DNA of 64,000 nt, from positions 21,514,001-21,578,000 of the forward strand of contig OZ024761.1 in the NCBI GenBank assembly GCA_964016885.1. Reading direction: 5' to 3'. The stretch is from Eledone cirrhosa (taxonomy: Eukaryota). Made by a program: the position numbers and the translations under genes. Within the stretch, counting starts at the first letter, position 1, and every line of letters starts with the position of its first letter. Under the pieces are notes generated by a model. The model had not been told where the DNA came from, searched no databases, and saw only the letters and a program-made list of their open reading frames with translations. This document shows positions 4,632-33,678 of the stretch, piece after piece.

Positions 4632-4972
4632 ACACACACACACACACACTCCATTGGGAAGAGATATCAGGGTGTGAATTTAGTTGAAATTATTATGAAG
4701 ATCAAAATGCCACACAACATACACAGTTAGAAACTCCCACAAACACACACACAACCCTCCACACAACCCTCCACACAAAAACAAACACCCCACCCCCCGT
4801 ACAAACCTCCGCAGTCACACACAAACAAAGACACACACACAAACATGCAAGCCCACACAATCACCCCCACACTCCCCACAATGTTATTTTAGTAACAAAG
4901 ATAGAGATAGATAGAGGGAAAGGTAGAGAGATAGATAGGTAGAGAGAGAGGTAGAGATAGACAGATAGATAT

Positions 4973-5725
4973 GTTTCTTTATTAGCCACAGGGGCACAAA
5001 AGAAGGGGACAAATACAAAGGGGGAAGTTTACATACAATAAAAACGTGTAAAATACTATCACAAATGTAATTTAAAAGTTAATCGATTTTCCCCAATAGG
5101 GGGAGACATTACATATGGGTAACACATACCCCCGAAAAAATGTGCAACCCTCATCTCCAGGAGTACGAAGATTTTGTACTCCTTTCCTCTCTCTTTTTCC
5201 TCCACCTACAGGTTGATATAGAGAGAAGGCCCATTCACTCGAGCCACCCTCGCCACTTTCACCCACCTTTCATAAAACTTGCTGGGGTACAGCACCTCTC
5301 TCTCCCTCCTGACTCTTCTTCCAAAATGGTATTTGAAAAAAAGAATCAGTTGTTGGCCGGAGAGAAAGGTGTCTGACCTCAGCCCTTTCAACCTTGTCCA
5401 CCATACAACCTCTTTCGCCATAGCTATCACACAAAGGAAAACCGCCTCTCCTTCGTTTTTCAAGGAGGGTGGCGGTTTGATCATGACAATGGACTCGGTG
5501 GTCAACTGGATTGGTCCCACCCGCGACAATAGTTGTTCTACATAGCCCCACAGTTCAGTAACGCCCGGGCAGTGTATGAATGCGTGCGCGACGGTTTCTT
5601 CGTCTCGCACGCATCTCGGACAGATCTTTTTCGAAGGGTGCCTACTCGGGCGCCCGTGTCTGGTAGAGCTCTTCGGTAGCACTGCCAGGCCAGGGACTTT
5701 TGGAAGTTGTCCATCGGTCCCAGAA
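4973..5725 (-). mobile_element. 5'-truncated Tx1/L1-clade non-LTR retrotransposon, copy A (C-terminal zinc finger plus 3' UTR, frameshifted)
   Basis: ORF 5206-5682 contains CPRCVRDEETVAHAFIHC (CCHC, zf-RVT-like). The 3' end reads GTGGCTAATAAAGAAAC followed by (ATCT)n-like repeats. There is a short deletion relative to copies B and C near 5660. Confidence 0.85.
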
Positions 5726-5826
5726 AGGTAGATAGATAGGTAGAGAGAGAGATAGGTAGATAGAGAGGTAGATAGATAGATAGAGAGGTAGATAGAGAGG
5801 TAGATAGATAGAGAGGTAGATAGATA

Positions 5827-7285
5827 AGTTTCTTTTATTTGCCACTAGGGCATCAAAAGTGGGACAAGTACAAAGGGGGGAGTTTACACAAAAAGGCGTC
5901 CTCAATAAGGAGGAGGCAATAACAAAATATAAAAATAAAATAAGATATAACAAAAAATAAAATTTTTAACAAAATCCTCAATAGAGAGGAGGCGCCTTGG
6001 GGGGTCGCACACACCCCCGAAAAAAGTGTGCAACCCTTTTCCTCAGGAGCACAGAGAGGGGGTGCTCCCTCGTTCCTTCCTCTTTTCCACCTACAGGCTT
6101 ATGTAAAGAGAAGGCCCATTCACACGGGCCATTCTCGCCACTTTCACCCACCTTTCATAAAAACGACTGGGGTGCAGCACCTCTCTCTCCATCCTGATCC
6201 TTCTTCCGAAATGATATCGGAAGAAACGGACCAGTTGTTGGCCAGAGAGAAAGGTGCCTGACCTCAGTCCTTTCAGACGCGTCCACCATACAACCTCTTT
6301 CGCCATGGCTATTACGCACAGAAACACCGCCTCTGCTTCATCTTTGAAGGGGGGAGGCGGCTTGATCATTACAATAGACTCGGTGGTCAACCGGATCGGT
6401 CCCACCCTTGACAGCAGTTGTTCGACATAGCCCCACAGATCGGCTACGCCCGAGCAGTGTACCAATGCGTGTGCAACGGTTTCCTCGTCGCACACGCATC
6501 TGGGACAGGTCTTTTTGGCGGGGTCCCTACCCGGGCGCCCGTGTCTGTAGAGCCTTTCTCGAACGGGTAAAGCCCCTCGGTAGCACTGCCAGGCCAGGGA
6601 CTTCTGGAAGTTGTCCATAGGTCCCGGGCTGAATGTCCTACCGAACAGGCTGGCCAGTTCGTCCTCCTCCATGTCTAGGGCTTCTCCGAGGGCGTCGTCG
6701 CACCTGCTGCGTACCAGCCCTCTATAGAATGTTGCGGTGGAGTCTCCACTGATAACCGGATCCGCCTGCCAGAGGGCGGTGAGCGCCTGGGCACACTCAG
6801 TGTGCCAGGCGCCCAGTTTTCTCGGTCTTTGCTTGACCCAGGATTGCAGCTCGGTGAGTGAGACGAGTCTGGGAAAGGTTCGTCTCACAAACGAGGCCCA
6901 CACCGGTTGTCCGGTGAGGAATACGTAGAGGTGCCGTAGCCTTAATGCGTGTTTACGCATCATTAGCCACGGCATCCCCAGCCCTCCTTTCGAAGGGTGT
7001 TGACAGCAGATGGATCTCCTCACCATAGGAGCCCGCCCCTTCCAAAGGAATTGGAAGAGCGCGCGCTCCATCTTGGTGAGGGTTTCCCTTGGGCAGGGCA
7101 CTACGGTCAGGCGGTAGTAGATGACGGACGCTATATAAGTGTTCGCCACCTCCGCCCGACCTTTCAGGGATAGTTTGCAACTGGCCCACTTCTGGGTCAG
7201 TGCAAACACCCTGTTCGTAACCTCCGCCCAGTTTTTCTCCACCTGGAGGTCCGGTCCGAACCAGACCCCGAGCAACTTCACCGGG
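5827..7285 (-). mobile_element. 5'-truncated Tx1/L1-clade retrotransposon, copy B (end of RT, thumb, zinc finger, 3' UTR); about 398 uninterrupted codons
   Basis: PVKLLGVWFG (final RT motif), LSLKGRAEV, FLWKG, GGLGMP and CPRCVCDEETVAHALVHC. Stop at 6091. AATAAA at the 3' end. Confidence 0.9.
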
Positions 7286-7451
7286 ATAGAGAGGTAGATA
7301 GATAGAGAGGTAGATAGATAAGATAGATAGATAGGTAGATAGAGAGATAGGTAGAGAGATAGGTAGATAGAGAGGTAGATAGAGAGGTAGATAGGTAGAT
7401 AGAGAGATAGGTAGAGAGATAGGTAGATAGAGAGGTAGATAGGTAGATAGA

Positions 7452-8468
7452 TTTCTTTATTAGCCACAAGGGCGCAACAAGAAAGGGGACAATACAAAGA
7501 CATGCCGGGGATTTTACATACAGTCGTGTAAAAAATATAAAAACAAACAATTACAACAATCGAAATCCCCAATAGGGGGGAGGCGCCACAAATGGGTTGT
7601 TTAATACCCCGTCGATAGAACAACCCTCAACTCCAGGAGCGTGTTGTGCAAGTGCTCCTTTCTTCCTTTTGCTCTCTTCCTCAACCTACAGGCTTATAAA
7701 CAGAGAAGGCCCAATCACTCGGGCCATTTTCGCTTCATTCACCCACCTTTCAGTAAATTTACTGGGGTGCAGTGCCTCTCTCTCCACCCTGATTCTCCTT
7801 CTAAAGTGATACTTAAAGAATGGAATCAATTGTTGTCCGGAGAGAAAGGCATCTGTCCTCAGTCCTCTCAACCTCGTCCACCATATAACTTCTTTCACCA
7901 TAGCCACCGTACAGAGGAAAACCACCTCTCTTTCGTTTTTGAAAGAGTCTGGCGGTTTGATCCTTACTATGGATCCGGCAGTCAACTGGATTTGTCCCAT
8001 ACGCGACAGCAGTTGTTCTGCATAGTTCCACAGGTCGCTTACGCCCGGGCAGTGTACAATTGCGTGCAGAACTGTTTCAATGTCCTGCGCACATCTTGGA
8101 CACGTCCTCTTGGAAGGATCCCTGCCAGGGCGTCCGTGCCTGTAGATCTTGTCACGAACCGGTAGAGCTCCTCGGTAGCACTGCCAGGCCAGGGACCTCT
8201 GGAAGTTGTCCATAGGTCCCGGGCGGAAAGTCCTACCAAACATACTGGTGAGCTCATCGTCTTCGACGCCCAGAGTCTCTCCGAGCACGTCGTCGCCCTT
8301 GTGACGTACAATCCCTCTATAGAATGTTGAAGTGGAGTCTCCACTGATTGCTGCGCCCGCTTGCCAGAGGACTGTGAGCGCCTGAGCGCATTCAATGTGC
8401 CAGGCGCCCATCGTTTTCGGTCTTTTCTTCACCCAGGACTGCAGCTCCGTTAGCGAGACGAGCTGTGG
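7452..8468 (-). mobile_element. 5'-truncated Tx1/L1-clade retrotransposon, copy C
   Basis: Open frame to the stop at 7686, colinear with copy B (MDNFQRSLAWQCYRGALPVR; CPRCAQDIETVLHAIVHC). Same 3' terminal motif as A and B. Confidence 0.9.
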
Positions 8469-9392
8469 GTAGGTAGATAGATAGAAGTAATAAACAATTC
8501 ACTTAAGAAACAACATCACATTCTAAAACTCAGATTTCTAAATATCCTCCAGGAAGCAGAAAGAATGTATATACACACACACATGTATATATAACGTATA
8601 TATGTGTGCATATATATATACACACACATATAGTGATAATGTATGTGAGTGTGTGTATATATACATATGTATACACACACATACACATATATATGTATAC
8701 ACACACATACATATATATGTATACACACACGTACATATTTGTGTATATATATATATATATATACACATACACTTATATATGTATACACACACACATACAC
8801 ACATACATATATATATATATATACACACACAAAGGTGTGTTCGTTTCTCTTGTTCACTGTTTCAATGTTAACGAACTACAGCAGACTGACTAGTTATTCC
8901 TTCCTTCCCCCACCCCCTGTATCACCTCACCCTTCTTCCTCCTTCCCCCCCCCACCCTGTTTACCCCACCCTTCCTCCTAATTTCCTTCCACTAAGTCAT
9001 TCACTATTTTCTTCCATTGCGTCTTCCATCCTTATTTCCTCACCATCTGATGAAAAATTTTATACATTTATAAAACTCCTCTCAGACCCACCTTTTTTCT
9101 CCTACCTGTATTCCTTTCATCTAGTCATCCAACCAAGTCACCCTTTTTTCCCCTACCTGTATTCCTTTCATCTAGTCAGCCAACCAACTAGGGCTGGGCT
9201 TTCACCTGTTGAGGCCCAAAACTATATGAATTTGAGGCTCTTCTCTTAAAAAAATTACATAATTACACATCAAAATGCCACACGCCATACACAGAAACTT
9301 CCACAGGCACCCACACACAAACCCACACCCACCCCATACAAACTTCCACAGACACATACATGATTTTTTTTTATATTAATGTTAATAATAAA

Positions 9393-32228: not shown

Positions 32229-33678
32229 GAGTGTACACATCCTCTAGGAGTGTACCCAAGGTGCAGAAGGACTCCTATGCAAGTGTACACATCCTCTAGG
32301 AGTGTACCCAAGGTGCAGAAGGACTCCTATGCAAGTGTACACATCCTCTAGGAGTGTACCCAAGGTGCAGAAGGACTCCTATGCAAGTGTACACATCCTC
32401 TAGGAGTGTACCCAAGGTGCAGAAGGACTCCTATACAAGTGTACACATCCTCTAGGAGTGTACCCAAGGTGCAGAAGGACTCCTATGCAAGTGTACACAT
32501 CCTCTAGGAGTGTACCCAAGGTGCAGAAGGACTCCTATGCAAGTGTACACATCCTCTAGGAGTGTACCCAAGGTGCAGAAGGACTCCTATGCAAGTGTAC
32601 ACATCCTCTAGGAGTGTACCCAAGGTGCAGAAGGACTCCTATGCAAGTGTACACATCCTCTAGGAGTGTACCCAAGGTGCAGAAGGACTCCTATACAAGT
32701 GTACACATCCTCTAGGAGTGTACCCAAGGTGCAGAAGGACTCCTATGCAAGTGTACACATCCTCTAGGAGTGTACCCAAGGTGCAGAAGGACTCCTATGC
32801 AAGTGTACACATCCTCTAGGAGTGTACCCAAGGTGCAGAAGGACTCCTATGCAAGTGTACACATCCTCTAGGAGTGTACCTAAGGTGCAGAAGGACTCCT
32901 ATGCAAGTGTACACATCCTCTAGGAGTGTACCCAAGGTGCAGAAGGACTCCTATGCAAGTGTACACATCCTCTAGGAGTGTACCCAAGGTGCAGAAGGAC
33001 TCCTATGCAAGTGTACACATCCTCTAGGAGTGTACCCAAGGTGCAGAAGGACTCCTATGCAAGTGTACACATCCTCTAGGAGTGTACCCAAGGTGCAGAA
33101 GGACTCCTATGCAAGTGTACACATCCTCTAGGAGTGTACCCAAGGTGCAGAAGGACTCCTATGCAAGTGTACACATCCTCTAGGAGTGTACCCAAGGTGC
33201 AGAAGGACTCCTATGCAAGTGTACACATCCTCTAGGAGTGTACCCAAGGTGCAGAAGGACTCCTATGCAAGTGTACACATCCTCTAGGAGTGTACCCAAG
33301 GTGCAGAAGGACTCCTATGCAAGTGTACACATCCTCTAGGAGTGTACCCAAGGTGCAGAAGGACTCCTATGCAAGTGTACACATCCTCTAGGAGTGTACC
33401 CAAGGTGCAGAAGGACTCCTATGCAAGTGTACACATCCTCTAGGAGTGTACCCAAGGTGCAGAAGGACTCCTATGCAAGTGTACACATCCTCTAGGAGTG
33501 TACCCAAGGTGCAGAAGGACTCCTATGCAAGTGTACACATCCTCTAGGAGTGTACCCAAGGTGCAGAAGGACTCCTATGCAAGTGTACACATCCTCTAGG
33601 AGTGTACCCAAGGTGCAGAAGGACTCCTATGCAAGTGTACACATCCTCTAGGAGTGTACCCAAGGTGCAGAGGGACTC
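32229..33678. repeat. 52-bp minisatellite, about 28 nearly identical copies
   Basis: AAGTGTACACATCCTCTAGGAGTGTACCCAAGGTGCAGAAGGACTCCTATGC. Confidence 0.95.

Follow-up and report, generated by a model that had tools for sequence, protein, structure and literature searches.

Tx1-like retrotransposons stacked in a TATC tract of Eledone cirrhosa, and a possible role for the RNA 3' end in target choice

The closest described systems are Tx1 families of long interspersed nuclear elements (LINEs) that insert into microsatellites. Kibi targets (TC)n, Koshi targets (TTC)n, and crocodilian Tx1 families target (TTCC)n or (TTTC)n, as described in the text of two reports (PMC4494074, PMC3812793). One of these treats a family as microsatellite targeting when a single sequence type is present in >20% of flanks (PMC4494074), and the other calls the mechanism poorly understood in the part consulted (PMC3812793). 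A change of LINE target is usually ascribed to evolution of the endonuclease. We analyzed a 64,000-nucleotide window from Eledone cirrhosa (contig OZ024761.1, positions 21,514,001 to 21,578,000, assembly GCA_964016885.1). It contains a stack of three LINE copies, designated A, B, and C after their subfamilies, in TATC tracts (GATA or TAGA on the other strand). The account that best explains the stack is that of three separate LINE insertions into a pre-existing TATC tract, with the site chosen in two steps, a loose nick followed by pairing of the RNA 3' end. We regard this account as a whole as probable.

The 3' ends of the element are fixed. The terminus in 121 top-scoring copies reads AATAAA(A)GAAA plus two letters. 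The terminal dinucleotide is CT in 41/41 B copies, TC in 40/40 C copies, and CA in 33/40 A copies. The next four letters are TATC in 30/40 A, 34/41 B, and 27/40 C copies. Exact patterns retrieved 10,974 A/C-type ends and 3,725 B-type ends from the whole genome. TATCTA directly follows 8,348 of the 10,974 A/C-type ends (76%, against the 20% named above) in a fixed register. Its background was 0.085% of positions (16 control stretches of 10 kb, 160 kb, both strands). No poly(A) tail was found in the 242 copies examined.

The repeat is also present at the 5' end of most copies. The 5' junctions of 158 deduplicated TAT-type copies contained a TATC run (95 copies), an exact duplication of at least 7 nt (20), a TA run (1), another element (11), or nothing (31). 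A TATC run or exact duplication was thus present in 115/158. Among these, the 50 copies picked by position alone gave 26 TATC runs, 8 duplications, 1 TA run, 7 other elements, and 8 with nothing. The preliminary description had named the opposite pattern, a repeat at the 3' end only with unique DNA at the 5' junction, as the mark of an element-made tail. Of 94 copies followed 3' by two or more TATC units, 74 carry a TATC run or exact duplication at the 5' end, 5 abut another element, and 15 have neither. The duplications are about 8 to 20 nt long, and the letters after the element terminus recur upstream. Duplications in non-repeat DNA were found in 19/158 TAT copies, compared with a shuffled mean of 2.1. 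One tandem duplicate with its boundary out of view (L049) was left out of the 5' counts. L307, which reads "TC AATCTA" and is too short to type, was counted among the TAT rows in the duplication and 5'-junction counts.

The repeat is very probably the target. It is present at both ends, duplications are found, and poly(A) is absent, which argues that the repeat pre-exists. Judging from the flanks, the element targets a short motif (TATCTA and also TATATA), in non-repetitive as well as in repetitive DNA. A (TATC)n tract would offer this motif many times over. The microsatellite therefore stands as a pre-existing target, as first proposed, but not as a microsatellite as such. Each insertion leaves a target at both ends, so arrays can grow. 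A family neighbor lies within a few hundred bases of 60/104 TATC-type copies, compared with 1/13 AAT-type copies. This agrees with the earlier proposal that several subfamilies share the TATC (GATA) target and build arrays. The shared target holds for most copies; one C sub-lineage uses AATAT, and older sisters appear to use (ATT)n. The target model would account for the concentration of >14,000 copies in GATA tracts. No clean empty allele was obtained from contigs and reads aligned to the stack or to one AAT insertion, where repeats swamp the signal.

The sub-lineage of C was seen without selection. Thirteen of the 40 top C copies continue with AAT, not TAT. Subfamily C 3' ends across the genome comprise 129 TCAAT and 1,271 TCTAT (about 9% AAT). 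Two single-nucleotide polymorphisms (SNPs) are common to all 13 AAT copies and occur in 1 and 2 of the other 27. Typing was extended to 73 copies that aligned over 800 nt or more with at least 96% identity, after removal of 14 duplicates. One SNP was present in 27/32 AAT and 1/40 TAT copies, and the other was present in 29/33 and 2/40. The AAT and TAT branches of C are about 99.5% identical.

The flanks of the AAT copies were examined at 30 loci and in longer stretches for 38 listed places, some of them overlapping. The first three flank letters of pattern-picked copies were fixed by selection; positions +4 and +5 were not. Position +4 is A in 56/58 AAT copies and +5 is T in 51/58. The TAT copies of C have C at +4 in 56/56, although TATATA is far commoner than TATCTA in the controls. 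Duplications in non-repeat DNA were found in 30/58 AAT copies (one duplicate pair included), compared with a shuffled mean of 2.65, and are 8 to 20 nt long including microhomology. The upstream copy of the duplication reads AATAT in 23/29 AAT sites, and the AATAT background is 0.36%. The markers and flanks together indicate that the AAT copies are a sub-lineage of C that uses AATAT in place of TATCT. The AATAT branch is new here, and TATC is new as a target for elements of this known kind. A second AAT group (L286, L306, and L314) has different SNPs and lacks the main-group markers. Site 4709T is common to this group and three main-group copies, so the two groups may not be independent. Four copies reading "TC AATCTA" (L198, L206, L298, and L307) were considered for the AAT lineage and rejected. 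Three of them could be typed and do not carry its SNPs, and all four are read as mutated TATC sites.

The AAT sub-lineage shares no endonuclease change. Eight AAT copies span the endonuclease. Two of them (L141 and L282) are identical there to TATC-targeting copies (L129 and L148), and the other six have private changes only. The hairpin loop of the L1 endonuclease has been implicated in specificity (PMC1950540, in the part consulted). The stretch that aligns with it is unchanged in 7/8 AAT copies.

These results fit a site choice in two steps. The endonuclease would nick the bottom strand with loose specificity, opposite a pyrimidine/WAT step, because a pyrimidine precedes the duplication in 28/29 AAT and 17/19 TAT sites. 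The transcript would read a few bases beyond the element into the flank of its source copy. Cleavage for poly(A) usually takes place 10 to 30 nt beyond the hexamer. Here the AATAAA hexamer lies only 6 to 7 nt ahead of the flank, so such read-through may be expected. The nicked strand would then pair with about 4 to 5 flank-derived bases at the RNA 3' end to prime. A source copy that landed off-target would found a lineage with a new target. Excerpts from the literature describe similar behavior. As few as 4 matching bases suffice for L1 priming (PMC3649969), and elephant short interspersed nuclear elements (SINEs) with different tails have different target-site duplication (TSD) starts (PMC6007223). 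On balance, the RNA tail appears to decide between TATC and AATAT. A bolder version is possible, and we hold it only tentatively. The target would be heritable and RNA programmed, with the flank bases in the transcript as a guide. Off-target landings would then have founded the TATC, AATAT, and perhaps ATT lineages with no change of endonuclease.

A candidate founder of the AAT lineage was retrieved. Full-length AAT copies L154 and L280 lie in a 59-bp minisatellite on C1 and have the same 5' junction. The minisatellite unit at the insertion point reads AATATTAACC, and the adjoining units are empty sites. The occupied unit has TATCTAT just upstream, whereas most other units read TATCAA(C/T). 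An off-register landing beside this TATC-like variant would have given the source a new flank. Several C copies (L278, L279, and L280; C1 at about 35.25 and 36.18 Mb) lie at one unit position of a long 59-bp minisatellite.

Several points weigh against a two-step choice guided by the RNA. The flank of the candidate source matches the AAT lineage profile to +6 and fails at +7 (T in 36, A in 21, and G in 1 of 58). Target letters clearly overwritten by RNA letters are rare; 3/51 informative duplications are off-register, one of them in a degenerate repeat. A strict tail model might predict that TATA-type B copies form their own sub-lineage, and none was found (7/9 mapped). At the 95% filter of this test, 2/9 TATA-type and 5/37 TATC-type rows were unmapped. 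The 5' junctions with neither repeat nor duplication amount to 31/158 TAT and 23/58 AAT copies, with the automatic boundaries imprecise in old copies. The switch itself counts as one or two events in evolution and not as 30 separate ones. Domain swaps in SART1/TRAS1 identified the endonuclease as the main determinant (PMC7265360, in the part consulted). A separate candidate, a predicted hairpin at the 3' end of A, B, and C, was rejected, as it was no more stable than shuffles (z of -0.4 to -1.6). The alignment of 28 3' ends was too poorly in register for covariation, and the search pattern had itself dictated the columns that do not vary.

The protein may instead have decided. A change outside the endonuclease (D932Y in ORF2, Q449R in ORF1, or M858I/A1052S in the second AAT group; ORF, open reading frame) would then have moved the target. 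Control of targets by the endonuclease or protein is the standard model in the parts of PMC4494074 and PMC7265360 consulted. The main AAT group shares N252N, E1053E, and D932Y in ORF2 and Q449R in ORF1. D932Y is the only ORF2 replacement common to this group and occurs in 27/32 AAT copies. It is absent from five AAT copies (L286, L306, L314, L214, and L316) and present in one TATC copy (L132). No amino-acid replacement common to all AAT copies was found. This explanation also needs two different protein routes to one new target, and we consider it unlikely.

Mobilization in trans would be another route. The RNA of the AAT lineage would be copied by the protein of another subfamily, with an endonuclease that prefers AAT/ATT sites. 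Sister subfamilies with the same terminal motif have 323 ends genome-wide that continue YY-ATYATTA, and ORF2 is no longer intact in candidate sources such as L154. The sisters are old. Among 30 loci, those reaching ORF2 are at most 61 to 70% identical to B. Of 26 ATT copies with the junction in view, 8 have an exact duplication and 2 have an informative one (0.75 in shuffles). Informative duplications are few, so the evidence that these older sisters target (ATT)n is weaker. The AAT lineage reads AATAT, not ATTATT, at its target, and this explanation gives no reason why only its RNA would use another protein. We consider it improbable. A TATC tail made by the element at unique or random sites, with arrays formed by later recombination, is largely refuted and very improbable, as the 74 copies with a repeat or duplication upstream, the diverse 3' flanks that match upstream letter for letter in non-repeat DNA, and the empty adjoining minisatellite units outweigh the 15 copies with neither; such tails, or deletions of the target, may account for a minority of copies.

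The stack itself was confirmed. All three copies are 5' truncated and on the minus strand. Copy A (4972..5727) is from an older subfamily. Its terminus is AATAAAGAAA-CA, and a deletion of 19 nt near 5662 has shifted its reading frame. Its 3' flank is a (TAGA)n tract (4899..4971) in which the target begins with TATC at 4971 on the minus strand. A second tract (5728..5826) separates A from B. Copy B (5827..7285) is from the youngest subfamily, and its terminus is AATAAAAGAAA-CT. Its flanks match each other exactly over 36 nt, with the repeat phase ambiguous. The C-terminal ORF2 frame of B (6091..7284, minus strand) is open for 397 amino acids. A third tract (7286..7449) separates B from C. Copy C (7450..8468) belongs to the TATC-targeting branch of its subfamily. 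Its terminus is AATAAAGAAA-TC, and it has a 10-nt duplication, TATCTACCTA. The C-terminal ORF2 frame of C (7686..8468, minus strand) is open for 260 amino acids. A short (TAGA)n flank (8469..8485) at the 5' junction of C contains the upstream copy of this duplication. The tracts are impure TAGA/TAGG/GAGA. Both open frames match Pfam zf-RVT. The copies are 73 to 79% identical in pairwise DNA comparison and 70 to 83% identical in protein over their common C terminus. Their CpG observed/expected ratio is 0.70 to 0.76, compared with 0.40 for the window. The preliminary description of orientation, truncation, bracketing repeats, open frames, CpG content, and divergence was borne out, with the ends refined and the tracts found to be impure.

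It had also called all three copies young, which applies to B and C. Copy B was 100% identical over 504 nt to 40/40 scored matches (among 1,306 candidates). Copy C was 99% identical to 39/39 other scored matches (among 4,093 candidates). The nearest relatives of the frameshifted copy A are 95 to 96% identical. These values indicate that only B and C are very young and that A is older. Judged from divergence, the middle copy, B, probably inserted last. Among 20,000 random control windows, 1.1% contained two or more TATC units in a row, and the association of the stack with TATC tracts exceeds chance. Pieces 99 to 100% identical to copies of B or C occur on contigs of two organisms (labeled organisms B and C), whereas a single read on positions 4660-8570 of the window came from the 1.9 Gb of raw reads for organism C. 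A fourth, A-like copy of 240 nt (60419..60659, minus strand) is 92% identical to A and has TATCTATCTA flanks on both sides. The window also contains many near-perfect minisatellites with periods of 48 to 52 bp (e.g., 16964-17853, 21818-22880, 24787-25792, and 32230-33678).

Full-length natural copies of B and C were recovered from upstream stretches. They are about 5.8 kb and contain two ORFs. ORF1 is about 600 to 620 amino acids with a CCHC knuckle, which is a feature of the Tx1 clade. Its zf-CCHC match has an E value of 0.0035, below the Pfam cut-off, and CX2CX4HX4C is visible in ORF1 of both B and C. ORF2 is 1,145 to 1,148 amino acids and encodes APE, reverse transcriptase (RT), and zf-RVT domains. 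Full-length copy L051 matched Exo_endo_phos (6.9e-07), RVT_1 (5.3e-26), and zf-RVT (2.8e-05). ORF2 of B and C is 77% identical, and the endonuclease is 70% identical. The best PDB match of ORF2 was human L1 ORF2 (166 bits), and the closest named protein came from Argonauta hians (67%), which makes an octopod host likely. The APE, RT, and C-terminal zinc region are those of an APE-type non-LTR (long terminal repeat) retrotransposon of the L1 group. The 5' truncation, fixed 3' end, and TSDs are hallmarks of APE-type LINEs.

The element is likely a member of the Tx1 clade. Its RT region scored 227 to 251 bits to four TX1/YTX2-labeled proteins, compared with 106 to 151 bits to plant and Dictyostelium proteins. 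In an RT tree of 42 proteins, the group was a separate clade whose sister consisted of unnamed ENA proteins, and it lay outside the vertebrate TX1/YTX2-labeled clade. The base was unresolved in this tree, which came from a quick search and was built without Kibi, Koshi, Keno, Xenopus Tx1L, or vertebrate L1 sequences. The sister-clade proteins (ENA, JGI) are mostly 38 to 55% identical, some in clusters of hundreds on contigs of up to 1.1 Mb.

The full-length copies vary at their 5' ends. B copies with near-identical ORF2 carry two types of 5' untranslated region and ORF1 (L037, L040, L044, L046, and L052 versus L051 and L063), which suggests 5'-end swapping between subfamilies. Full-length copies (L033-L065 and L128-L154) start with a TATC-like leader, even where the upstream duplication is not TATC (L154 and L280), so the 5' end of the element may carry target-like letters too. 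One copy (L061:2642-7240, element orientation) has an internal deletion that joins ORF1 to ORF2 in frame (1,532 amino acids), with the start of the endonuclease lost.

If the target is RNA programmed, it could be reset by rewriting 4 to 5 RNA bases. Two near-identical branches with the same endonuclease and different targets form a natural experiment that separates protein from RNA. Given the AATAT branch, the part that RNA plays in target choice can be tested directly by combining one protein with two RNA tails. The branch has a bearing, too, on the retargeting of retrotransposons for gene insertion.

The element resembles and differs from several known systems, compared here with the parts of the cited sources that were consulted. 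Thirteen recently active L1-Tx1 families have been counted in Octopus vulgaris, and the word "target" is not used in the part seen (PMC13282606). Our literature search, which did not extend to most subscription papers or to Repbase Reports, found neither a Tx1 that targets TATC/GATA nor an autonomous Tx1 that had switched target through its tail. The text of PMC4494074 and PMC3812793 does not name TATC among Kibi/Koshi-type targets, and the supplement of PMC4494074 may list more. Like Kibi, Koshi, and the crocodilian Tx1 families, these are array-prone APE-type LINEs with two ORFs and pyrimidine-rich microsatellite targets. Unlike them, they have an invertebrate host, several targets within one group, and their own RT clade apart from the vertebrate TX1/YTX2-labeled proteins. 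Like human L1, they would combine a loose endonuclease with a 4-base priming match to set the insertion spectrum, and their ORF2 is homologous (PMC3649969, PMC1950540). Human L1 primes in poly(A), which is absent here. In RTE-clade LINEs and SINEs, the start of the duplication corresponds to the RNA 3' end, and near-identical elements with different tails have different TSD starts (PMC6007223), as would be the case here. Those elements encode a repeat tail with a 1- to 2-base match in animals (PMC6007223), whereas the present, autonomous element leaves no tail, and its lineages differ at 4 to 5 bases. In R1Bm, SART1, R2Ol, and the I factor, the RNA 3' end resembles the target and base-pairs with the nicked strand (as cited in PMC7265360 and PMC6007223), as may happen here. 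Pairing in those elements raises accuracy at a site that the endonuclease has already set, whereas here pairing would alter the site itself and would be passed on in the flank of the source copy.

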